From NCBI RefSeq assembly GCF_000026545.1, contig NC_011601.1: a DNA stretch of 64,000 bases; one strand, 5' to 3'. Shown here piece after piece: positions 310 through 16,224 of the stretch. The DNA is from Escherichia coli O127:H6 str. E2348/69 (lineage in GTDB: Bacteria > Pseudomonadota > Gammaproteobacteria > Enterobacterales > Enterobacteriaceae). A program made the translations under genes and the position numbers. Under the pieces are notes generated by a model. The model saw only the letters and a program-made list of their open reading frames with translations, ran no database searches and was not told the DNA's origin. Numbering within the stretch: the stretch's first letter is position 1; each line of letters begins with the position of its first letter.

Positions 310-1173
310 ATGATCCGCAGTATGACCGCCTACGCCCGGCGTGAAATCAAGGGTGAATGGGGGAGCGCAACCTGGGAAATGCGCTCGGTAAACCAGCGTT
401 ATCTGGAAACTTACTTTCGTCTGCCGGAGCAGTTCCGTAGCCTTGAACCTGTCGTTCGTGAGCGTATTCGTTCTCGCCTGACGCGCGGTAAAGTGGAATG
501 TACCCTGCGCTATGAGCCCGATGTCAGCGCGCAAGGTGAGCTGATCCTCAACGAAAAACTGGCTAAACAGCTGGTAACTGCCGCGAACTGGGTAAAAATG
601 CAGAGTGACGAAGGGGAAATCAACCCGGTTGATATTCTCCGCTGGCCAGGCGTGATGGCGGCCCAGGAACAGGATCTCGACGCGATTGCCGCTGAAATTC
701 TCGCGGCGCTGGATGGTACGCTGGACGACTTTATCATCGCGCGCGAAACCGAAGGTCAGGCGCTGAAAGCATTGATCGAGCAGCGTCTGGAAGGCGTGAC
801 CGCCGAAGTGGTCAAAGTCCGCGCCCACATGCCGGAAATCCTGCAATGGCAGCGTGAGCGTCTGGTGGCTAAGCTGGAAGACGCCCAGGTGCAACTGGAA
901 AACAACCGTCTGGAGCAGGAGTTGGTTCTGCTGGCACAACGAATTGACGTTGCCGAAGAGTTGGACCGCCTCGAAGCGCATGTTAAAGAGACCTACAACA
1001 TTCTGAAGAAAAAAGAAGCCGTTGGTCGTCGTCTGGACTTTATGATGCAGGAGTTCAACCGCGAGTCGAACACCCTGGCCTCGAAGTCTATCAATGCCGA
1101 AGTGACTAACTCCGCCATTGAGCTGAAAGTGTTGATCGAGCAGATGCGCGAGCAGATTCAGAATATTGAATGA
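310..1173 (+). CDS. yicC: YicC-family stress-induced protein, 287 aa
   Basis: 287-aa ORF with YicC-like sequence; expected position next to rph. Confidence 0.9.
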   Translation: MIRSMTAYARREIKGEWGSATWEMRSVNQRYLETYFRLPEQFRSLEPVVRERIRSRLTRGKVECTLRYEPDVSAQGELILNEKLAKQLVTAANWVKMQSDEGEINPVDILRWPGVMAAQEQDLDAIAAEILAALDGTLDDFIIARETEGQALKALIEQRLEGVTAEVVKVRAHMPEILQWQRERLVAKLEDAQVQLENNRLEQELVLLAQRIDVAEELDRLEAHVKETYNILKKKEAVGRRLDFMMQEFNRESNTLASKSINAEVTNSAIELKVLIEQMREQIQNIE

Positions 1174-1212
1174 TTTTGCATGCTGTCGCATGAAATTGCA
1201 AAAATCCATCAT

Positions 1213-1240
1213 AGCCCGCATTTTGCGGGCTTTTTTATTT
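1213..1240 (+). terminator. Rho-independent terminator downstream of yicC
   Basis: Hairpin agcccgca-tttt-gcgggct followed by T-rich run ttttttatttt. Confidence 0.7.
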
Positions 1241-1281
1241 TCATACTGTCGCATATGATTGCATAGCATCGCGCAAAACAT

Positions 1282-1300
1282 TTGTACCCAAGACTGTACC
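1282..1300 (+). repeat. attL core: 19-bp direct repeat TTGTACCCAAGACTGTACC (identical copy at 12406-12424)
   Basis: Exact 19/19 match at both ends of the integrase-bearing element. Confidence 0.75.
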
Positions 1301-1360
1301 TTTAATAATTTATCCAATTCATTTTGGGTACAAAATGATAGTCAATATTCAGGTGAAACT

Positions 1361-2620
1361 ATGGCAAAGCTGACAGATATCCAAATCAAGTCATGGATTA
1401 AGGCAGGAGAACGCTTCGAGGGGCGCTCTGACGGCAACGGGCTATACCTTCGCTATCGAGTGGGGGATAAAGTGCCTGTATGGCGTTTTCGATATCAGTT
1501 CGCTGGGAAATCACGGGTAATGCTTATTGGATCTTATAGCGAAATATCCCTTTCCAAAGCACGGGAAATAGCCAAGGAATTATCCGCACGTGTAGCCCTG
1601 GGCTTCGATGTCGCCGGGGAAAAGAAAGCGCGAAAAGCGGCTGCTATAGAAAAGATGGAGCGGGAGAAAAACGCGCTTCGCGTGTCAGAGCTAGCAACCG
1701 AGTATTTCGAACGGCAGATTTTGGGACGCTGGAAACATCCCGATCTTCTGCGCCGGAGAATCGATAAGGATATCAACCCACATATTGGCAACATGAAGAT
1801 AGAGGACGTAAAACCCCGTCATATTGATGCGATGCTACAGAGCGTTGTTGATCGTGGCGCTCCAACCGTAGCTAATGACGTTCTGCGCTGGACTAAACGC
1901 ATATTCGATTATGCTATCAAGCGTCATGCACTGGAATTAAACCCAGCTGGAGCATTTGATCTGTCAGACGCTGGCGGGCAGGAAAGTAGCCGTATGCGCT
2001 GGCTGACCCGTGAAGAACTTATACGTTTTTTCCAAGCTATGCGCACTGCAAAAGGATTCAGCCGCGAGAACGAGCTGACCATGAAGCTAATCCTCTGCCT
2101 GTGTTGTCGCAAAATGGAGCTGTGCGGTGCTCAGTGGGATGAATTCGACCTTGATGAAGCAGTGTGGCATCTACCAGCAGAACGCGTTAAAAACGGCGAC
2201 GCTATTGATATACCACTACCTCCACCTGCGGTTGGTTGGTTGAGAGAGCTTCGCACTATCGCGGGCAGTGGGAGTAAATGGGTTCTCCCCGCGCGGAAGA
2301 TGCAACACCGCATGATTCCCCACATTCAGGAAAGCACACTCCCAGTGGCGCTGGCAAAAGTACGCCGCGAAATGCCAGAAGTACCAAACTTCACAATTCA
2401 CGATTTCAGGCGTACCGCCCGCACCCATTTAGCGGCGTTGGGTGTCGATCCCGTAGTCGCAGAACGTTGCCTGAATCACCGCATTAAAGGCGTTGAGGGT
2501 ATCTACAACCGCCACCAGTACTTTGAAGAACGACGGGCAGCCCTGGAACTGTGGGCGGGGCTTCTGGTTTCGCTTGAACGAGGGGAAAACTACAATGTTA
2601 TTCCTTTATCTAAAATATAA
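1361..2620 (+). CDS. int: Tyrosine recombinase, P4-type integrase (419 aa)
   Basis: N-terminus MAKLTDIQIKSWIKAGERFEGRSDGNGLYLRYRVGDKVPVWRFRYQFAGK typical of P4-family arm-binding domain; C-terminal HDFRRT...HRIKGVEGIYNRHQY catalytic motif; start set at ATG 1361 with RBS aggtgaa. Confidence 0.9.
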   Translation: MAKLTDIQIKSWIKAGERFEGRSDGNGLYLRYRVGDKVPVWRFRYQFAGKSRVMLIGSYSEISLSKAREIAKELSARVALGFDVAGEKKARKAAAIEKMEREKNALRVSELATEYFERQILGRWKHPDLLRRRIDKDINPHIGNMKIEDVKPRHIDAMLQSVVDRGAPTVANDVLRWTKRIFDYAIKRHALELNPAGAFDLSDAGGQESSRMRWLTREELIRFFQAMRTAKGFSRENELTMKLILCLCCRKMELCGAQWDEFDLDEAVWHLPAERVKNGDAIDIPLPPPAVGWLRELRTIAGSGSKWVLPARKMQHRMIPHIQESTLPVALAKVRREMPEVPNFTIHDFRRTARTHLAALGVDPVVAERCLNHRIKGVEGIYNRHQYFEERRAALELWAGLLVSLERGENYNVIPLSKI

Positions 2621-2635
2621 AAGTTTTGTTTGAAG

Positions 2636-2740
2636 GTATTCACCCTATTCACCTTTTTAATTAACTTCATGATTTTAAATAATAAAAAAGGGTGAATACT
2701 TACAGTAAAACTAATCACCTTAGTATTCACCTGTTCACCT
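2636..2740. repeat. Cluster of five GGTGAAYA-type motifs (TATTCACC x3, GGTGAATA, TGTTCACC) downstream of int
   Basis: Read directly from sequence; a similar cluster lies at 12150-12265 at the other end of the element. Confidence 0.45.
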
Positions 2741-3123
2741 TCTAAAGCTGCTGTGGCTGCTCCCCTTGCCCGAAAACACGCCAGCCACCAGCGTTAAAAA
2801 AAACTACAAAAATCATCATCGTACAGATCTGTACGATGACGCCAGCACTCACCCTACAAAACAACCTAACTTATTGATTTCAAAAGTAGAGAAAATCTGC
2901 TTTATGCCACTAGCTCGCACCCGTCCCCAAAAAGAAAAAGCCCGCGCTGGAGACGCACGGGCTTTTGGGTACCGATAACCATGTTTGGAATCAACTCATT
3001 GAGTTCTGACCTCAATTTGCATGTTATCACAAGAAAAACACATTGTAATAATTGCAACAACGAATATCATCATTGCATATAATGAAACATAAATATCCGA
3101 TAGAACATACTGAGGTCTGACCG

Positions 3124-3675
3124 ATGCAAGATATTACAAACATCGCAGTGACTGGCGAAGATGGCGTGGTGACGTATGCCGACGGCAGTAAAGAGGAGTT
3201 CCAGTGCAGCGGAACCGTTGCGACCATCATTGCAAGTCTTGCAACGACACTCGAGAAAGAACGCAAAATGCGCATCGCCACCGGCGACCGCCTGCGCCGC
3301 ATGTACACCCGCGACAGTGATATGATTTCCCGCGGTTTGAATGGCACGTCTGCTACTTCCACGGCACCGACAGCAATGAATGCTGAGTTCATGCGTCTGG
3401 TACGTGCCGTAGCGCCGAAATACGATTCAGCACTGCCCGACGCCGACCCGCGCATCGTTGCGCTCGATGTGCTGCGCTACGCCCCTGCTGAGGCGTTCAG
3501 CGCCGTACACCCTACCCCAATGTCAGAAATCCAGCTGGATCAGGCTATCGATATACTCGAGCAGGTTGGCGACTACATGAAAGCAAACAATATCGCTCCG
3601 AAAATAATTTCTACAGGAGACGCAATCCGCAGCATCAATGCTGACAACGCCACCTTCTGGGGCAAAAAACACTAA
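3124..3675 (+). CDS. Hypothetical protein, 183 aa (first gene of cargo operon)
   Basis: ORF of 183 aa, same strand and closely spaced with three downstream ORFs; no motif recognised. Confidence 0.6.
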   Translation: MQDITNIAVTGEDGVVTYADGSKEEFQCSGTVATIIASLATTLEKERKMRIATGDRLRRMYTRDSDMISRGLNGTSATSTAPTAMNAEFMRLVRAVAPKYDSALPDADPRIVALDVLRYAPAEAFSAVHPTPMSEIQLDQAIDILEQVGDYMKANNIAPKIISTGDAIRSINADNATFWGKKH

Positions 3676-3688
3676 AGAGATATGAAGC

Positions 3689-3877
3689 ATGTCTATCTAT
3701 GACCCGAAATTAGCCGCAGGCAACCCACAGCGCGCCCACCGCCCAATGCTGACCCGTCAGGATCTTGAAACGGCAAAGGCACGCAATAACTTCGATCGCC
3801 AGAGTCGCAACCTGCAGCAACTCAACGAATCAAATGCACGGTTCTGGAGTGAACAGAATGAGAAAGCCAAACGTTAA
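3689..3877 (+). CDS. Hypothetical small protein, 62 aa
   Basis: Small ORF 14 bp after previous stop; basic/charged composition; no recognised domain. Confidence 0.4.
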   Translation: MSIYDPKLAAGNPQRAHRPMLTRQDLETAKARNNFDRQSRNLQQLNESNARFWSEQNEKAKR

Positions 3878-4034
3878 GCCGGTCCTGCTGTCCGCCGAGC
3901 AGATGCAGGCCATACGCAACATTCAGGAACGTGAACGCCAGCGCTCCAATCTCGGCGTCGCTCCCACCGTTCACCAGATTGCCCGCGGCCTCATGGCTAA
4001 GGCTCTGGCCTCACTGGCAAGCGAGGGCGCGTAA
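3858..4034 (+). CDS. Hypothetical small protein, 58 aa (start taken at ATG 3858)
   Basis: RBS ggag 9 nt upstream of ATG 3858; its stop overlaps the start of the next gene (TAATG). Confidence 0.4.
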   Translation: MRKPNVKPVLLSAEQMQAIRNIQERERQRSNLGVAPTVHQIARGLMAKALASLASEGA

Positions 4035-4765
4035 TGGGCGCCATTCACCAGATATATGAGCAGGAAATGTTCTATAACTGGATAGGCGATGGTAAACGAT
4101 GTGTAGCATTCCACGAAGCGGGCCATGCAGTAGCCGCATGGCTTATTCGCTTAGATATGCAGGTTATCGCCATTATGGATGAATCCGGCTACGTTGCTGG
4201 CGAACATGTACATGAAGCCCAGTGTTTGGGCGTTGTTAAACACGGCATAATCCACAGCCACGATCTCAGGCGTTTGCGGGAGAGTAAATCTGGTGTAGTT
4301 GGGCACGATGGCAAAGTTATCCCTTTCATACGCTACTACGCGGAAGGTATAAAGCGCGATGCAACAAAGGCCGCTTTTGTAGCCCTCGCTGGACCAGTAA
4401 GCGAAGCCATTTACGAAAATAACGAAATTTTCAATATAAAGTATTCACTCCCTCACCGCTATGACATGGCTAACGTAAATGACATGCTCGATTTAATATG
4501 TGCCACGGATAAGCGAATTAACAGGAAGTTAATGCTTTCTAAACTTGTTGAAAAGACCAAATTCCTCATGACTCAATACTGGCCGGAAGTAGGAAAAATA
4601 GCGCATTTGCTTGAGCGGGATAACATTGTTAATGGCCGCGATGTTAGCTCGCTAATCGGCCTCAACGTCATTGACCGGGCAACGCCATTTTTGGTATCTG
4701 ACTTGAGCAGTACATTTGCTCATCTCCCGTACTCGTCCCTGCCTCCGAATGAATTAGCAACTTGA
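4034..4765 (+). CDS. Standalone FtsH-like (M41-type) zinc metallopeptidase domain protein, 243 aa, no AAA+ module
   Basis: VAFHEAGHAVAAWL closely matches the FtsH zinc-binding HEAGH motif; later ALAGPVSEAIYEN resembles the FtsH third-ligand region; no Walker A/B present. Confidence 0.55.
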   Translation: MGAIHQIYEQEMFYNWIGDGKRCVAFHEAGHAVAAWLIRLDMQVIAIMDESGYVAGEHVHEAQCLGVVKHGIIHSHDLRRLRESKSGVVGHDGKVIPFIRYYAEGIKRDATKAAFVALAGPVSEAIYENNEIFNIKYSLPHRYDMANVNDMLDLICATDKRINRKLMLSKLVEKTKFLMTQYWPEVGKIAHLLERDNIVNGRDVSSLIGLNVIDRATPFLVSDLSSTFAHLPYSSLPPNELAT

Positions 4766-4812
4766 AGACAGTAAAGTAGCCATGCATTTAACACGCATGG
4801 CTATGTGAACAT

Positions 4813-6036
4813 TTAAGAATTAGAGCGCTTAGGCGATCGCGTAAATTGCACTAAAGCCCCTTTATGATCGTTAGCCTGCACATCACGATGCTCAACCAAC
4901 ATAGATTTTAATTTTGCCAGATGCACAACAGCAGCCTTCTTGCCAGTCAGGTACCCCTCGGGCAAACCAGCAATCATTTCCACATCAATAGCAGATAAAC
5001 CTGCGAATGCAGCAAGCCGTTCAACTGAAATGATTCCAGACGATGCCAGCAATTCAATAGTACGTTTCAACAAACGTGGTTTTTCAGGCTCACGATAATC
5101 ATCTCCCGGCTCTGATTTCGCTCCCCAACGTGCTGAACGACGCTTATAAAGATTTTGTTTCTCTTCTTCCGTAATAATATGCAGCACATGTAAACGCATG
5201 ATACTTGCCGCAACGGAAATACCATAGCGTTGTTTAATTAAAAGCAAGCTATCTAATGTTACCGGGGTCCTAATTTCTTCGGCAAATGTCTCAGCAGGAA
5301 GCAGCAGTGCTCCCGCAAATTTATGAGCCTGACTTTCCTTCAGCTTATAACGTTCGGCTTCGAGTTCGTTGCCAACATAGCGGTGAAGGATCAGATGACC
5401 AATTTCGTGAGCAAGGTCAAATCTGCTACGAAAAGCATTACCTTTATCTGAAGAGAGGAGAACAAAAGGAACACCTAAAGTCTCACTCCAGGCAGAAAGC
5501 CCTTCAATCTGCGCAACGCCTGTTTCTTCTCTAATAACGATAATACCATTACTCTCTGCGGCTAAAGCAAGATCCGGTATTTCCTTTGTACCAAGATTCC
5601 AAAGAGCACGGCACTCATTAGCAGCGTCTTCAATATCTGCATCACTAATTTCATCAATGTTTGTAAAGCTACGACGCGGTAGTTTTAGCTCCGGCAGATC
5701 TACAAACTCAGTCAGCTTAGTAACTAACTCATTAGCCCAATGGATTCGAGTTTCTAACATTGCTCGTGCAGCTACATGAGCTGATGCATTGCTTCTGAAC
5801 AGAGGCTTTGACATCCCCTTCAACAGAGGGCGCGTAAACCATTCAGGTGTAACATTTACGACAGTGGCCAGACGTTCTAAAGCCTCAGACTCTGGAGCCT
5901 GTTGACCGGAACGCCATTTGCTAATGGTTGCTGGTGATACACCCACCATAGTAGCTAATTGAGTTTGTGATAGCCGCCGGGCGGCTAGTACCTGTGCTAA
6001 CCTGCCCGGTTGAAATTCGGCGACGCCTCGGCTCAT
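4813..6036 (-). CDS. XRE-family HTH fused to ImmA/IrrE (M78-type) metallopeptidase, with ~150-aa C-terminal extension (407 aa)
   Basis: N-terminal LSQTQLATMVGVSPATISKWRSG helix-turn-helix; FDLAHEIGHLILHRY HExxH motif typical of ImmA/IrrE peptidases. Confidence 0.75.
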   Translation of the reverse strand: MSRGVAEFQPGRLAQVLAARRLSQTQLATMVGVSPATISKWRSGQQAPESEALERLATVVNVTPEWFTRPLLKGMSKPLFRSNASAHVAARAMLETRIHWANELVTKLTEFVDLPELKLPRRSFTNIDEISDADIEDAANECRALWNLGTKEIPDLALAAESNGIIVIREETGVAQIEGLSAWSETLGVPFVLLSSDKGNAFRSRFDLAHEIGHLILHRYVGNELEAERYKLKESQAHKFAGALLLPAETFAEEIRTPVTLDSLLLIKQRYGISVAASIMRLHVLHIITEEEKQNLYKRRSARWGAKSEPGDDYREPEKPRLLKRTIELLASSGIISVERLAAFAGLSAIDVEMIAGLPEGYLTGKKAAVVHLAKLKSMLVEHRDVQANDHKGALVQFTRSPKRSNS

Positions 6037-6680
6037 ACATTATCTTCCTCGGTTCCATCTTTTCTGATAATGCCCCTTTTGAGCCCAGGGAATGCATTAT
6101 CTTCTTGGGACGGAACTACATCATATCGGGTTAAAAAAAGTTCAAGTGGCTCATGAAAAACCCAGCGCTTCCCATCAGAACTTGGTACAACAAGCTCTAT
6201 AGACATCGGAGCTTCAGGCTGAATCTGCAACGAACCGGAAAAACGGCATACTACGAACAGTGTAGCTTTTGGCACATCAGAACCATCGGAGAATAAATCC
6301 GGTTGCACCATTTTTTCCACAAACACGTTCTCAGAAATGAGTTCTTGCTTACGTTTGCTACGGAATAATCTCTTCCACTGGTTATCATTGTAGCTTTCAC
6401 GAACAATCGTGAATATACCACTATGGCCTTCTACAATACGGTTACCACGCAGCTTTCCAGGATTACAACCGTTGGCCTCAAACACCTCATAAATAGTTTC
6501 ATTCAGGTTTAAATGACGATCATAACCAAGCGCGGTCGATCTGTGATCTAGCTTCTTCTTTTGAGCATAATCGTAAGAACGCTTTGATGCCGCGTAAATC
6601 GCGTCAGAAAGGGCCATGAAGAGTTGTTTTGAAACATTCTGAACGATGAGATCTGCCACTTTGGATTTTTTCACGACCAT
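6033..6680 (-). CDS. Hypothetical protein, 215 aa, translationally coupled upstream partner of the HTH-ImmA gene
   Basis: ORF of 215 aa; its stop overlaps the downstream start (ATGA at 6033-6036); no recognised motif. Confidence 0.6.
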   Translation of the reverse strand: MVVKKSKVADLIVQNVSKQLFMALSDAIYAASKRSYDYAQKKKLDHRSTALGYDRHLNLNETIYEVFEANGCNPGKLRGNRIVEGHSGIFTIVRESYNDNQWKRLFRSKRKQELISENVFVEKMVQPDLFSDGSDVPKATLFVVCRFSGSLQIQPEAPMSIELVVPSSDGKRWVFHEPLELFLTRYDVVPSQEDNAFPGLKRGIIRKDGTEEDNV

Positions 6681-6683
6681 TTC

Positions 6684-6702
6684 CTATCACTGTCACTGAT
6701 AG
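6684..6702. promoter_or_regulatory. Inverted repeat CTATCA-N7-TGATAG overlapping the RBS/start region of the 215-aa gene (candidate operator)
   Basis: Read directly from sequence immediately adjacent to the start codon at 6680. Confidence 0.25.
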
Positions 6703-7209
6703 CCGTGATTTTATATCAGTATTTTTTCGTGTGTCCATAACGCAATCAATTATTTTTTCCTTTGTCAGCAAGAATTATATAAAAAGCACTATCATGACAG
6801 GATTTGGGCCACTAACCTTTCACAGACTCTTGAAGTCCTAGAAAAAAGCAATGGCACAAGGTGTCCTTGCCGGGAGAAAAATCATCTGGCTACCAGCAAC
6901 CTTATAGATTCCAGATCAACGTAATATCAAAGTAAAACGTCCATTTCCGGTACCATATTTGGTCATTACGACGGGGGAAACTTATACCCACTGCTGCCCC
7001 ATCGTCAGCGCCGACAGGGACCTATGCCGCAAGGTATAAGGCAAAATTGGCATTTTCGCTATTCCCCCTGCCCGTATTTTTTGGCTTACTGGAATTTCTC
7101 TATCTAACACAATGAACTTGAGGCTATTCCGACAGGGAGAAAAGCGATCTACGCCTGACCGCCTGCCTCAGCAATCATCCAGGCAAGTACGTGTGTAAGG
7201 CTAACGCGA

Positions 7210-7890
7210 ATGAGTGATTTTTATTCCCCTCTACCAAGCTATGATCTTGTCCGGGCAGCGGAGATGCTGACTGATAAGGGGGCAAATTGTACCGGTAACG
7301 ATTTATTGGAACTATGGAACCAAGGCGTTATCGAGTTGTGTTTTTCTCTGCCGGACTACATTGCTTGTGAAGATGTTAATTTTCCCGGGCATGGTCACAG
7401 CATTTTGTTATCCGTGGATCCGATTAGCTTCAACCTTTTCTGGCTAAATGTTGATTACCCACCGAACTTAAATGCTAACTTTTCTGTGAAAGAATATGGC
7501 TCAGATAGTGAATTCCATGAGCAGTCCCTATGGATACCAACAGAACCGCACTACAACACTCACCATGATAACGGGGAAGGGCTTTGCGAAGCGTTAAGGA
7601 ATACTTATGGCCGGGAAAATTTACGAATACCAGGTGTCGAATTGCAAAAGGTTTGGCGCTTTTTGATCGGTCAGCCTTATGAAAAAAAGCCAACGCCTGA
7701 GCGTATCACCGCTAAGCAATGCCGCTTTATCGTCGCATTACTCAGATCGTATAACCTGACTGACGATGATTTTAAGGGGAGCATTAGGGACCTGAGAATT
7801 AAGATATCTAACCGGATCCCTTCAATCGGTGATCCTGAAATCGATGATAATACCCTTACTGACTGGCTGAAGAAGGGAGGGGTTCGGTAG
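7210..7890 (+). CDS. Hypothetical protein, 226 aa
   Basis: Isolated ORF upstream of alpA, preceded by ~530-bp AT-rich intergenic region; no recognised motif. Confidence 0.55.
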   Translation: MSDFYSPLPSYDLVRAAEMLTDKGANCTGNDLLELWNQGVIELCFSLPDYIACEDVNFPGHGHSILLSVDPISFNLFWLNVDYPPNLNANFSVKEYGSDSEFHEQSLWIPTEPHYNTHHDNGEGLCEALRNTYGRENLRIPGVELQKVWRFLIGQPYEKKPTPERITAKQCRFIVALLRSYNLTDDDFKGSIRDLRIKISNRIPSIGDPEIDDNTLTDWLKKGGVR

Positions 7891-7992
7891 CTGAGTTTTC
7901 ATAACTCCGATGAGTTTTCAATAACTCCCCCACCCGTAACCACCTACCCCGTAGCCTTGCGATTACCTTCTCACTCAATAGCAGGTAATCGC

Positions 7993-8205
7993 ATGAAATC
8001 GCAAACTTTCACCTTTCCTACCAATGGCAACGCACGAGCCAAACAAGTGGCGCACTATCTTGGAGTGCATATCAGCACCGTATGGCGCTATGCAAAACGT
8101 CCTGATTTTCCAAAACCCCACCAGTTAACCGACGGCGTGACCGTCTTTGACGCCGCAGCTATTCGCCAATGGAACAAGCAAAAAACCGGGGGTGAGAATG
8201 CTTAA
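7993..8205 (+). CDS. alpA: AlpA-family phage transcriptional regulator / excisionase-like DNA-binding protein (70 aa)
   Basis: KQVAHYLGVHISTVWRYAKRPDFPKPHQLTDGVTVFDAAAIRQW is the AlpA-type HTH pattern; start set at ATG 7993. Confidence 0.8.
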   Translation: MKSQTFTFPTNGNARAKQVAHYLGVHISTVWRYAKRPDFPKPHQLTDGVTVFDAAAIRQWNKQKTGGENA

Positions 8206-8259
8206 CGCGACCGTGAGCACACCCTGCACGACAGCCGTTCGATCTCCATTGTTGGCGGG

Positions 8260-8454
8260 TCAGGCTTTCGGCTCAATACCCAGCCGCTGGAGTTCTTTGC
8301 GCCCCAAGGTTTTCATCCAATTAGCTAAACTCATACCTGCATCTCGTGCGGCGGCCTCGAATTGCTCTTTCAATTCTGGGGCGATCCTCACTTGGAAAGC
8401 TGGTGCCTTTCCCCTGCCTTTGGGCTGTTTATCACGCTGTATTACTGTTGACAT
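8260..8454 (-). CDS. Small ribbon-helix-helix-like protein (64 aa), opposite strand to the replication operon
   Basis: FQVRIAPELKEQFEAAARDAGMSLANWMKTLGRK resembles RHH (Arc/CopG-type) strand-helix-helix; start chosen at internal Met. Confidence 0.4.
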   Translation of the reverse strand: MSTVIQRDKQPKGRGKAPAFQVRIAPELKEQFEAAARDAGMSLANWMKTLGRKELQRLGIEPKA

Positions 8455-8588
8455 GTATGTACCTATTAAACTAAGATTCAAATCAATAGGTACGCACCTT
8501 AACATGTTAAGGTCAGAAAAGACAACGCCCCGTAGTGCTCGCAACACATACGGGGCGTCTAACCAACAACGTTACGGAGACTAACGCT

Positions 8589-8789
8589 ATGGCTAAGCCG
8601 CAGTGTACCCAAACTCACCCCAAATATCAGTATCGTTTTATGGCGCTCGATCGCGCTGACCGCCAGGCAAAACCCTGCAAAATCATTGTTGAGGCCACCA
8701 GCGAGCATGAAGCACGTAAGGTGTTGGCACCTCACTACATCCTGTCACTGTCCGCCGTTTTGCCAGTTCAGGAGGTGAGCCATGTTTAA
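8589..8789 (+). CDS. Hypothetical small protein (66 aa), satellite replication-module operon
   Basis: RBS ggaga upstream of ATG 8589; overlaps next ORF. Confidence 0.5.
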   Translation: MAKPQCTQTHPKYQYRFMALDRADRQAKPCKIIVEATSEHEARKVLAPHYILSLSAVLPVQEVSHV

Positions 8790-8976
8790 TGTCATTGTCA
8801 CGGTCACCTATCACTTTTCGGGAACGATCCGTCGTTTTGCTATTCCGGAACGTTTCAATAATCGTGAGCTCGCAGAGAAAGCGGCGCAGCAGTTAACCCA
8901 TACCAGCTATCTGGATGATGGAGTGAGCAGAATTGTGACCCACGCGGCGGAAGTAGTGGAGGTGCGCCATGTATGA
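8782..8976 (+). CDS. Hypothetical small protein (64 aa)
   Basis: Strong RBS caggaggtg; overlapping start/stop with neighbours. Confidence 0.55.
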   Translation: MFNVIVTVTYHFSGTIRRFAIPERFNNRELAEKAAQQLTHTSYLDDGVSRIVTHAAEVVEVRHV

Positions 8977-9157
8977 CGCCTACCTGAACCCAAAGGACGC
9001 ACTCCGTCCGATCGCCGTTGCACTCGAGGCTGCGCAGTTTATCGCGCTTGACCCGGAGAATACCGATTTAGCCCATGAGCTGATCGCCTGGGCACTTGAA
9101 ACAGCCGCGCGTGCCTCAGCTGCGCAACGTAACACCCCGGAGGTGGACAATGCTTAA
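8969..9157 (+). CDS. Hypothetical small protein (62 aa)
   Basis: RBS ggaggtg upstream; translationally coupled. Confidence 0.5.
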   Translation: MYDAYLNPKDALRPIAVALEAAQFIALDPENTDLAHELIAWALETAARASAAQRNTPEVDNA

Positions 9158-9458
9158 TCTCAATACATGGAATCTTTTCACGCTGCCGCTGAACGGTGGC
9201 GCAGCTGAGACAGCGCCGGACGATCTGCGTCTGCTGGCCGCTGTGGGGGACGAGGCTCGCAACAACTACCTGCGCGGTGTAAGCGCCATCGGCAATCTGA
9301 TCTTCTGGGCATGTGATAACCCCAACTACACCGACCATCAAGCTGACCTGCCAGCGCTGGGCGCATTCCTGAAACATACCGCTGATATGGCGCGCGCTGC
9401 CGAATTCATGGCAGGACATCTGGACTCACTGGCTGACGGCAAAGAGGGAGGCAAATAA
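9150..9458 (+). CDS. Hypothetical protein (102 aa)
   Basis: RBS ggaggtg before ATG 9150; stop overlaps next start. Confidence 0.55.
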   Translation: MLNLNTWNLFTLPLNGGAAETAPDDLRLLAAVGDEARNNYLRGVSAIGNLIFWACDNPNYTDHQADLPALGAFLKHTADMARAAEFMAGHLDSLADGKEGGK

Positions 9459-9679
9459 TGCCACGCAAACATCGCTCATCAAGCAACCTGATCAAATTAA
9501 TGGAACGCCAGAAAGGTATAGGGCGCGACGATATCCAGATCGCAGATAATCGCCCTACATTCATGCCGTACGAGCCGAACGGAACCTACGCTACAAACCG
9601 CCATACCCGCCGTATGCTACGCAAGCTCCACGGCATCCAGGCAAAAAGAATGTGTGATCTGAAAGGAGGTCAGAAATGA
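9458..9679 (+). CDS. Hypothetical small basic protein (73 aa)
   Basis: RBS gagggagg; stop overlaps primase start (ATGA). Confidence 0.5.
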   Translation: MPRKHRSSSNLIKLMERQKGIGRDDIQIADNRPTFMPYEPNGTYATNRHTRRMLRKLHGIQAKRMCDLKGGQK

Positions 9680-12090
9680 GTGGATTCGATCACCTGATGG
9701 AGCAGGGGCAGAAACGCACCCCTGCTCGTTTTACTGCAAATAGCTTTTCTGACCTGTGCAACGCTATTCTATCGCATCGTGTGCAAATTTCCATCACACA
9801 GGAAATGACGGATGAAGAACGGCGCAAAGAAAAGCAGAAACTGTACTGGTTCTCGGCAACTACCCAGCAGGACGGGCAGCGACGTAAACCCGAAAACATG
9901 GCACCGTGTGCTTTCGGTATGCTGGACATTGACGGCAGCACTCCCGGTGCAATCACAGCACTTGTACAGGTGTTCCGGCGATACTCAATGCTGGTGTACC
10001 AGACGGCCAGCTATACGACGGATGAACCTCGTCTGCGTATTGTGTGCGAGCTTTCCCGAGCGGTTGAATCTGACTACCGCCGAGCGACAGGCGAATCCAT
10101 AGAAACTTTGTTGATGCAGGAGGCTGGATTCTCATTCGCCAGCCTGGCGGATAAGAAAGCACGCTGGGAGAACGGCAGCGATTATGTTGTCTTTGACCGC
10201 AATGTATACGGCGCTCAAAGCTATTGCTACTGTCCACACACTGGAGCGAAAGCCCAGAATTACGCGGGCGCGGTAATCGACGTAGGGGCGTTACCGGAAC
10301 CCGCCCAGCCACCAGCGAAGGCGGCCAAAAGCAAGGCAAAGAAACAGCGCCAGCGTGACGCCGCGGCGGTAATAGATGCTGATTTTGACGATCTGAGCGC
10401 CGGACCGGATAACTTCCTTATCGCCGACCTGCGCAGCGCACTCTGGTTTCCCTCCATGCTGCAAAAGGCATGGGACAATGGGGCGTGGATTGAGCAGGGC
10501 TACCGCCTTGCATCTCTCAAAGGCACCGATTTTGAGGACGACGCGCGGCAACTGTGGGTCGAGTGGTCATTGACCGCAGCGGATGGCTGGCCTGATGAAG
10601 AACTTGATGAAGTCGCGGCACAACGCTGGAATGGTCTCGCCCCTGACAAAACCAGCTATAAAGCTATTTTTACTGATGCTCAGGCGCAGGGGTGGAATAA
10701 TCCGGGCAAATGGCGAGCAAAGGCCGCGTACATTGAGAAAATGGCCCCCAGCACACGCGGTGAACTGCTGGCGCAATATTACGGCAACGTATGCCTGAAA
10801 GCTGATGGCAACATGGTTTATCACTATACCGGGCAGGTGTGGGAGCACATCGCCGATGCCGAGTTGCGCCGCCAGCTTTCGCAGATTTTCAAAGATAACG
10901 GGGTCCCCTTTACACCGTACGAGGTTAAAAGCGCGATTGAGGCTATGGGAATGCTTCTGCCTTTAATGGGAGAAACTCCTCGTAACCTGATTGGCTTTGC
11001 CAACGGCGTTTATGATCTCGAGGCGCAGCGATTCCGCCCCCACTGCCCAGACGATTGGCTGACCAGCCATAACGGCGTTGAATACACGCAGCCGGTTAAA
11101 GGCGAAACCCTGAAAAACAATGCCCCAAACTTCTGGCGCTGGCTGCATCATTCCGCAGGGGGCGACTTCGACAAAATGGAGAGAATCAAAGCCGCTCTGT
11201 ATATGGTGCTGGCAAACCGCTACGACTGGCAACTGTTCATCGAGGTTACCGGTGCTGGTGGCAGTGGTAAAAGCGTGTTCACGGGTATTGCACGTATGCT
11301 GACGGGCGAACTACACGCCACCAGCGGCACAATGGAGGACATGGACACCGCGCGCGAACGCGCATCTTTTGTCGGCAAAAGCCTGATCACCCTACCCGAC
11401 CAAGCAACATATACGGGTTCCGGGCCGGGTATCAAGGCTATAACGGGCGGCGACGTGGTAAGGATCGACCCAAAGCACGAAAAGCCATTCCATACGGTTA
11501 TTCGCGCCGTTGTCATCGCAACAAACAACGAACCTATGCGTTTCACCGAACGACAAGGCGGGATATCGCGGCGCCGGGTTATTTTCCCGTTTAACCATGA
11601 AGTGCCGGAGGCGGAACGTGATCCCCATCTGCTCGATAAAATTAAAGCCGAACTGCCGGTAATCGTCCGTGGTCTGCTGATTGACTTCGAACAGCCAGGC
11701 AAAGCCAAATCGCTACTTATCGCGCAGCGTGATTCAGCGGAAGCGCTGCAGGTGAAGAACGATAACGACCCGATGTATGGCTTTTGCTCTTACCTGCTAG
11801 GTTTGCCGAATCCCGAGGGCATGTACATGGGCGATGGGCGCATGGCGCGAGAGCCACGCATCTACCTCTATCATGCTTATCTGGCCTATCTGGAAGCCTA
11901 CGGTTATCAGAGAACCCCCACCCTACCGAAGTTCAGCGGAGATTTACGGGACACGCTCAAAGCCTTTGGTATTACTCTGGACAGTAAAAAGAGTAAAAAG
12001 GGCAAAAGATATAACGTCAATTTGTCTGACAGGGCACAAGAATGGCTGGGAGAAGACGAACTCTCAGCTGTGCCCGACACATTGCAGTAA
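9676..12090 (+). CDS. P4 alpha-like bifunctional DNA primase/helicase (804 aa)
   Basis: Walker A GAGGSGKS in the C-terminal half; size and architecture typical of P4-alpha-type replication proteins; RBS aaggagg. Confidence 0.85.
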   Translation: MSGFDHLMEQGQKRTPARFTANSFSDLCNAILSHRVQISITQEMTDEERRKEKQKLYWFSATTQQDGQRRKPENMAPCAFGMLDIDGSTPGAITALVQVFRRYSMLVYQTASYTTDEPRLRIVCELSRAVESDYRRATGESIETLLMQEAGFSFASLADKKARWENGSDYVVFDRNVYGAQSYCYCPHTGAKAQNYAGAVIDVGALPEPAQPPAKAAKSKAKKQRQRDAAAVIDADFDDLSAGPDNFLIADLRSALWFPSMLQKAWDNGAWIEQGYRLASLKGTDFEDDARQLWVEWSLTAADGWPDEELDEVAAQRWNGLAPDKTSYKAIFTDAQAQGWNNPGKWRAKAAYIEKMAPSTRGELLAQYYGNVCLKADGNMVYHYTGQVWEHIADAELRRQLSQIFKDNGVPFTPYEVKSAIEAMGMLLPLMGETPRNLIGFANGVYDLEAQRFRPHCPDDWLTSHNGVEYTQPVKGETLKNNAPNFWRWLHHSAGGDFDKMERIKAALYMVLANRYDWQLFIEVTGAGGSGKSVFTGIARMLTGELHATSGTMEDMDTARERASFVGKSLITLPDQATYTGSGPGIKAITGGDVVRIDPKHEKPFHTVIRAVVIATNNEPMRFTERQGGISRRRVIFPFNHEVPEAERDPHLLDKIKAELPVIVRGLLIDFEQPGKAKSLLIAQRDSAEALQVKNDNDPMYGFCSYLLGLPNPEGMYMGDGRMAREPRIYLYHAYLAYLEAYGYQRTPTLPKFSGDLRDTLKAFGITLDSKKSKKGKRYNVNLSDRAQEWLGEDELSAVPDTLQ

Positions 12091-12109
12091 CTTGTAAAAA
12101 ATCACCAAG

Positions 12110-12132
12110 AACCCCGTAAATCGGGGTTTTTG
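12110..12132 (+). terminator. Rho-independent terminator after the primase gene
   Basis: Hairpin aaccccg-taaa-tcggggtt followed by ttttt. Confidence 0.65.
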
Positions 12133-12149
12133 TCTATTTATTAGTCTGA

Positions 12150-12265
12150 AAGGGTGAACAGGTGCGCATACCTTAACAAAGCTGTTCACTCTAATAATTT
12201 TCTTTAATATCAGTACACTACCCGCAATAAGTGAACAGATGGACGGGGTGAACACTTCACACCTA
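12150..12265. repeat. Cluster of GGTGAACA-type motifs (four to five copies, both orientations) near the attR end
   Basis: Read from sequence; mirrors the motif cluster at 2636-2740. Confidence 0.4.
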
Positions 12266-12405
12266 TAGCGCGAAATATTTTAATATTTGCAGTTGAATTG
12301 CAATCCTTGAAAACAGAAACGCGTAGCAAAACGTAGAGTGCTGAAAAAATTTTGTTGGGGAGCAGTTCAAACTGCATGAGCAATTTTCAAGCACTCCTCT
12401 TTGTC

Positions 12406-12424
12406 TTGTACCCAAGACTGTACC
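12406..12424 (+). repeat. attR core: second copy of 19-bp direct repeat TTGTACCCAAGACTGTACC
   Basis: Exact match to 1282-1300. Confidence 0.75.
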
Positions 12425-12655
12425 CAATAGAAAAAATAGAAAATAAAAACTCAGCAATAGCAGCGATTGGTTACACTACTCAACATTCAGATTCAACTCG
12501 TAACGCCAATTCTTACTTTTCAGCCTTCACAAATGCCGCCCACTCAAACAGAGCGGCATTTTTCTTCCCCGCAACTTCAATTCTGTTTTGCGTGCCTGCT
12601 CCAGATTTTGCGATGTTTTTTTGCCCAGCGCAGTGAGAACGTGAGATACTCACAA

Positions 12656-13832: not shown

Positions 13833-16224
<2,392 letters not shown>

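Follow-up and report, generated by a model that had tools for sequence, protein, structure and literature searches.

Introduction

Phage P4 and the Gram-negative PICIs are the described systems closest to the locus treated here. The GenBank record of P4 (NC_001609) annotates 16 'ori type 1 repeats', which fall within crr (expanded in the record as 'cis required region for replication') and in what it labels 'origin of DNA replication'. These repeats read TGTTCACC, with the variants TATTCACC, TGTTCACA and TCTTCACC. Taken in the direction of the alpha gene, the parts of P4 come in the order ori, vis, cI, epsilon, cnr, alpha, crr, arm repeats, attP, int, cII and late genes, and then ori again. 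P4 alpha reportedly recognises its origin by way of the type 1 octamers.

The paper of Ziegelin et al. 1993, which PMC8628076 cites, names origin recognition by P4 alpha in its title, and the reference list of PMC2777425 has PDB 1KA8 under the title 'phage P4 origin-binding domain'. According to Moura de Sousa & Rocha 2021 (PMC8628076), the core of a P4-like satellite is made up of psu, delta, sid, epsilon (ash), alpA, alpha and int. For Gram-negative PICIs (e.g. EcCICFT073), an iteron region 3′ of pri-rep is needed for plasmid maintenance (Fillol-Salom et al. 2018, PMC6092414). In the literature that we covered, neither the octamer nor 'ori1/crr' brought up anything usable.

The window, meaning here the whole stretch of 64,000 nucleotides that was analysed, comes from the prototype EPEC strain E2348/69 and contains an unannotated 11-kb integrative island. 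Directly behind the integrase gene of this island lies a cluster of octamers (2637–2739) that is very probably an iteron array of the P4 'ori' type, which would act as the replication origin of the island and be read by the island's own primase-helicase. The cluster had been noticed in an earlier reading made from the sequence alone, which offered arm-type integrase sites and iteron-like sites as its two possible meanings.

We describe this origin and its likely initiator, and we correct the assignment of the att and arm-type sites of the island. The comparison links P4 ori/crr and the Gram-negative PICI origin through one iteron architecture and homologous origin-binding domains, with specificity drifting between lineages; the link helps satellite annotation and will not surprise specialists. 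The origin is of a known kind, unusual in its position directly behind int and in being split into two halves, and its interest is modest.

The island

The window runs from yicC towards selC, with tRNA-SeC at 38278. Between yicC and dinD it holds the integrative island (∼1161–12495, 11.3 kb), for which RefSeq lists a tyrosine integrase, several hypotheticals, an XRE/M78-peptidase, an AlpA-family protein, an Icd-like protein and a 'DNA primase family protein'. Its features are collected in Table 1. They follow one another in the order array A (the cluster behind int), cargo, alpA-like gene, Icd-like ORF, alpha-like gene, array B, TGTACCC pair, att, int and array A again; with this matching order of parts the island is collinear with P4.

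The gene content agrees less well with P4 than the order does. Besides int and alpha, only the Icd-like ORF matches a P4 protein, and searches of the island by tblastn, Pfam and PHROG gave no matches to sid, delta, psu, epsilon or cnr, and no similarity to cos. What it has of a P4-like satellite is int, an AlpA-family gene, alpha and the Icd-like ORF; since the other P4 genes and cos are missing, the island is not a canonical P4-like satellite. Nor did the libraries used recognise in it any genes for PICI packaging or interference. The island may be defective or non-packaged, or it may be mobile in another way.

The Icd-like ORF (8589–8786) shares 45% identity with the C-terminal part of the ORF for the P4 cI gene product (kil/icd region). 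Cargo at 4034–6680 encodes a 243-aa protein with a HEAGH metalloprotease-like motif (weak M41 match), and on the opposite strand the gene for a 407-aa XRE-HTH/M78 (ImmA/IrrE-type) peptidase overlaps a 215-aa ORF that has no family match. This cargo may be a regulatory or defence module.

Table 1. Positions, in the window, of the attachment, iteron and gene features of the island
Feature	Position	Strand	Description
Left att crossover region	1153..1160	+	CAGATTCA, 3′ end of yicC; from comparison with the K-12 empty site and the O157 island
Candidate arm-type sites, int side	1282..1332	.	TGTACCC 1283-1289, TGTACC 1295-1300, inverted GGGTACA 1326-1332
Tyrosine integrase	1361..2620	+	Pfam Arm-DNA-bind_3, Phage_int_M, Phage_integrase; RefSeq
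Iteron 1	2637..2644	+	TATTCACC, direct; aligns with the first site of the P4 ori, O157, Tatumella and Erwinia arrays
Iteron 2	2646..2653	+	TATTCACC, direct; 9 bp start-to-start from iteron 1
AT-rich spacer	2654..2690	.	37 bp, 11% GC
Iteron 3	2691..2698	-	GGTGAATA on the + strand; inverted copy
Iteron 4	2712..2719	+	TAATCACC, degenerate; faces a perfect TRTTCACC in all four compared arrays
Iteron 5	2724..2731	+	TATTCACC
Iteron 6	2732..2739	+	TGTTCACC, identical to the P4 consensus
AlpA-family gene	7993..8205		RefSeq annotation
Alpha-like primase-helicase gene	9676..12090	+	804 aa; RefSeq 'DNA primase family protein'
Second iteron array, crr-like	12153..12254	+	Aligns with two P4 crr 120-bp units
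Candidate arm-type sites, other arm	12406..12425	+	TGTACCC 12407-12413 and 12419-12425
Right att crossover region	12488..12495	+	CAGATTCA; K-12 sequence resumes at 12497

The octamer cluster

The intergenic region that holds the cluster extends for 500 bp, from int to the next gene (3124). The cluster begins 17 bp past the int stop codon (2618–2620), in agreement with the sequence-only reading, which had put five copies of an octamer immediately after the integrase stop; the same sequences are found here. Written as GGTGAAYA, the motif matches exactly on the minus strand at iterons 1, 2, 5 and 6 and on the plus strand at iteron 3, and the five copies read, in order along the plus strand, TATTCACC, TATTCACC, GGTGAATA, TATTCACC and TGTTCACC. 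When one mismatch is allowed a sixth copy is added (iteron 4, 7/8 bases), bringing the total to five perfect TRTTCACC octamers and one 7/8 copy within 103 bp.

Such density is far above expectation. The whole 64-kb window has 14 matches to GGTGAAYA where 3.18 ± 1.79 are expected, and none of 100 shuffles reached 14. Enrichment against shuffled sequence had been proposed as a check on the cluster, and it holds up locally as well: the AT-rich intergenic segment 2621–2800 has five matches, against a maximum of two in 200,000 dinucleotide-preserving shuffles. A Poisson scan gives an estimate of ∼2e-11, and a cluster produced by chance is unlikely.

Two other features were set aside. A pair of GGTGAATA copies (26654 and 26771) falls within one chromosomal ORF of 577 aa and is put down to coding sequence or chance, and a 46-aa minus-strand ORF (2590–2730) is composed of the repeats themselves. 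Between the array and the next gene there are also a perfect 24-bp palindrome (TCATCGTACAGA/TCTGTACGATGA; 2816–2839) and a GC-rich hairpin (2936–2966) with T runs on either side, which looks like a bidirectional terminator.

Correspondence with the P4 origin

The octamer of the cluster is a P4 type 1 repeat or one of its annotated variants. Most sites of the cluster have the variant TATTCACC, which occurs in P4 crr too, rather than TGTTCACC. When each is oriented along its alpha gene, cluster and P4 ori have an identical layout, with two direct copies, an AT-rich spacer, one inverted copy and three direct copies, and the orientation relative to the alpha gene is the same. Start-to-start spacings are 9/45/21/12/8 in the window and 10/43/22/11/10 in P4 ori, each within 1–2 bp of its counterpart, and the P4 spacer (35 bp, 17% GC) resembles that of the cluster in length and composition. 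Both arrays, moreover, stand apart from a second array located after the alpha gene.

The arrays of the O157 island and of Tatumella (L005) show the same succession of two direct sites, spacer, one inverted and three direct sites, with spacings of 10/43/21/12/8 and 8/46/21/11/10, respectively. When the window, O157:H7 island, Tatumella, Erwinia and P4 ori arrays are aligned, all six sites align. Invariant columns, counted from the column list, make up 32 of the 48 iteron positions and 9 of the 75 other positions; conservation across genera is thus much higher in the sites than in the spacers. The suggestion of iteron-like sites in the sequence-only reading is supported by these comparisons, since octamer, copy number, orientation and spacing fit the P4 type 1 repeats and a cognate initiator is encoded on the island.

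The setting of the two origins differs. The P4 origin, which also goes by the name ori1, lies ∼280 bp upstream of vis (orf88) and ∼4.8 kb beyond int, with cII, beta, gop, cos, psu, delta and sid in between. That segment is absent from the window island, where the array follows int at once and 5.2 kb of unrelated cargo comes before the alpA-like gene.

A position within the intergenic region between int and the gene at 3124 would also suit a transcriptional operator, at which a regulator (the alpha-like protein or one of the island HTH proteins) would bind the repeats and control int read-through or the expression of downstream cargo; initiators that bind origins often double as repressors. Promoter and terminator scans found nothing that overlaps the cluster, however, the sole promoter-consensus matches being at 3024–3070, and for want of an overlapping promoter-like site we consider this role quite improbable. 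The architecture is, besides, that of P4 ori, and in relatives the array stands 3′ of the initiator gene with no gene start close by.

The presumed initiator

An origin of the P4 type needs to be read by a protein of the alpha type, and the 804-aa alpha-like protein of the island is, from its sequence relationships, the presumed initiator that would bind the octamers. Over residues 314–791 it shares 44% identity with P4 alpha (E=8e-130), and it has the Pfam domains D5_N, DUF5906 and Pox_D5. Residues 696–791 (nt 11761–12048) match PDB 1KA8 (E=6e-16). Array and alpha-type protein, the latter with a C-terminal winged-helix origin-binding domain, are therefore found on the same element, and helicase and origin-binding domains are shared with the P4 initiator.

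The N-terminal ∼310–315 aa (9676–10620) are of a different kind. They match only the PHROG 'DNA primase' family phrog_9765, have no Pfam match and are unrelated to the zinc-finger/Toprim primase part of P4 alpha; a pattern scan of IMG/VR with the N-terminal 315 aa found no relatives. A megablast search of E. coli genomes with the initiator gene recovered this variant only in the 17 complete genomes that have the island, so that the search provided no independent E. coli case of an array placed after int.

The nearest alpha homolog found is from Xenorhabdus (L003, 59% identity), and different repeats follow its gene. Specificity among alpha homologs thus shifts quickly, and homology of the domain alone is for this reason no proof that the window protein reads TRTTCACC.

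A second array after the initiator gene

P4 has a second cis iteron region, crr, downstream of its initiator gene, and a weaker equivalent is present in the island. The second array begins 63 bp past the alpha-like stop and consists of GGTGAACA at 12153, TGTTCACT at 12183, AGTGAACA at 12230 and GGTGAACA at 12247, with a spacer of 38 bp (26% GC). Its similarity to P4 crr extends to its place, just after the alpha stop and ahead of the arm-site candidates and att, and the O157 and Tatumella arrays align with it too, in their second half. P4 crr is made up of two units of 120 bp, each with five sites, whereas the window has a single unit of four sites, two perfect and two 7/8.

Proposed replication of the island

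On the model of P4, the island would excise as a circle. The alpha-like protein, with its primase-like N-terminus, SF3 helicase and C-terminal winged-helix domain, would bind the octamers of both arrays through the C-terminal domain, and the AT-rich spacer of the cluster, which by analogy with iteron origins in general would be the DNA-unwinding region, would melt. The helicase and primase activities of the alpha-like protein would then start theta replication, with the second array serving as a partner required in cis, like crr in P4.

The main rival on function grants the homology to a P4-type origin and holds that this origin no longer fires, the island being a decayed or rearranged satellite kept only as integrated DNA, in which the octamers are residual binding sites at most. 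One of the six cluster sites is indeed degenerate, but the other five are perfect and keep the P4 spacing. The second array is weak and the placement after int is unique in our sample, yet the sites are far better conserved than the spacers across genera, as described above. The missing homologs of sid, delta, psu, epsilon, cnr and cos, which together with these features count against a working origin, are to be set against an 804-aa initiator gene, an int and an alpA-like gene that are all intact. The distribution can likewise be read in two ways: the island occurs in only 17 of 5426 complete E. coli genomes, but its identity there is at least 99% and several serotypes are represented (O127:H6, O55:H7, O45:H2 and O99:H6), which suggests recent spread. 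Taking these points together we think it rather unlikely that the origin is a fossil.

Arrays in related loci

Species-representative genomes were scanned with the helicase and origin-binding part of the alpha-like protein, which gave 80 loci from Enterobacterales and Aeromonas (L003–L082). At least three strict octamers lay within 300 nt 3′ of the alpha-like gene in 47 of the 80 alpha-homolog loci. Other loci keep the layout with lineage-specific repeats in place of the octamer (TGTTCATA, GTATACAC, TRTCTACC, CCCTACC or GTATGTA). The C-terminal domain sequences of the alpha homologs cluster by repeat type, a grouping that is expected if this domain reads the repeats; repeat types and C-terminal domains across the 80 loci make up a natural data set for a recognition code. 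Five P4-like loci (L076, L077, L079, L081 and L082) have two arrays, one ∼2.5 kb upstream of alpha and the other after it.

The arrays are tied to alpha-like genes and not to integrases. They adjoin alpha-like genes that are paired with unrelated integrases, and octamers within 300 nt after the int stop were found for none of 74 other int genes sampled, so that within this sample an array directly behind int is unique to the window island.

Attachment and candidate arm-type sites

The distance of ∼1.3 kb to the att core that had been proposed for the cluster stands only in part. It agrees with the ∼1.35 kb that separates the cluster from a 19-bp direct repeat, TTGTACCCAAGACTGTACC (1282–1300 and 12406–12424), but comparison with the K-12 empty site places this repeat inside the island, and we rejected it as the att core; the crossover region is ∼1.48 kb away. 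The 19-bp repeat consists of two TGTACC(C) sites in tandem.

Upstream of int these sites form a definite layout, with the tandem pair followed after ∼25–30 bp by an inverted copy and after a further ∼25 bp by the int start. This TGTACMC layout is kept in all six loci of the window's integrase family (70–82% identity), with flanks that differ, and the O157 island has two TGTACAC copies at the equivalent place near its other end. The arrangement resembles that of the P4 arm repeats, and from its conservation the TGTACMC sites are likely to be the arm-type sites of the integrase.

If the octamers themselves were arm-type sites, the N-terminal arm-binding domain of the island integrase would bind them in building the recombination complex. 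This is reasonable from position alone, given that the integrase carries such a domain, that the motif lies near both island ends (in the cluster and in the second array) and that the arm-type sites of P4-family and lambda-family attP regions are also short repeats, in both orientations and close to the integrase gene. However, the cluster is 1.35–1.5 kb from att, whereas the P4 arm repeats lie within ∼460 bp of the core and mostly within 170 bp. Comparison with the P4 attP arm sites, another check that had been suggested, shows the P4 arm repeats to be of the TTGGGGGCATAT type, different from the octamers and distinct from P4's own iterons.

Nor are the octamers inherited together with the integrase family, for islands whose integrases show 70–80% identity (O157, Erwinia, Tatumella and Xenorhabdus) are without octamers after int, and it is the TGTACMC position that is conserved in this integrase family. 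Five of the 74 other int genes, all lacking octamers behind the stop, are 70–82% identical to that of the window. With the survey counts above, which associate octamer arrays with alpha-like genes next to unrelated integrases, these comparisons leave an arm-type role for the cluster extremely improbable; the TGTACMC sites fit that role better, and the cluster itself is better read as a P4-type iteron array.

Two copies of CTGTCGCAT..ATTGCA (1177–1207 and 1240–1270) flank a terminator that the island supplies to yicC. The copy at 1240–1270 is nearly identical in the Erwinia locus (L004), before int at 15529, and GCGCATGATT recurs ahead of the TGTACMC pair in other loci. The CTGTCGCAT..ATTGCA copies may represent an accessory-protein site in the att arm.

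Relation to Gram-negative PICI origins

PICI-like loci and the O157:H7 island at yicC have two contiguous halves after pri-rep, A (>> AT < >>>) and then its mirror image B. The window island has a B-like half 3′ of its initiator gene, and its A half is found behind int, 9.4 kb upstream when the island is integrated. In the Gram-negative PICI origin the pri-rep protein reads iteron sets on both sides of an AT-rich region, as is proposed for the window island; the difference is that there the entire origin is immediately 3′ of pri-rep. Identity to the O157 island is 85% over 55 bp between its A half and the window cluster, and 48% between its pri-rep and the alpha-like protein. Judged by these sequence comparisons, the replication module of the window island is related to those of P4 and of the Gram-negative PICIs.

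It is a doubtful possibility that the island is an evolutionary intermediate, P4 ori and crr being the halves of a single palindromic PICI-type origin. In the island these halves would stand on either side of the att-int module, in combination with an N-terminal primase domain of a third, uncharacterised type. More speculatively still, a half-origin directly behind int might couple origin firing or initiator titration to integrase transcription.

The PICI-like island at yicC/dinD in E. coli O157:H7 E32511 (L083) is a different element from that of the window, and is present in ∼70 other genomes as well. Its integrase is 79% identical to that of the window and its two-half iteron array is at 8950–9190, after pri-rep; besides three genes of the PerC family it has genes for SSB and ProQ/FinO and an antirepressor.
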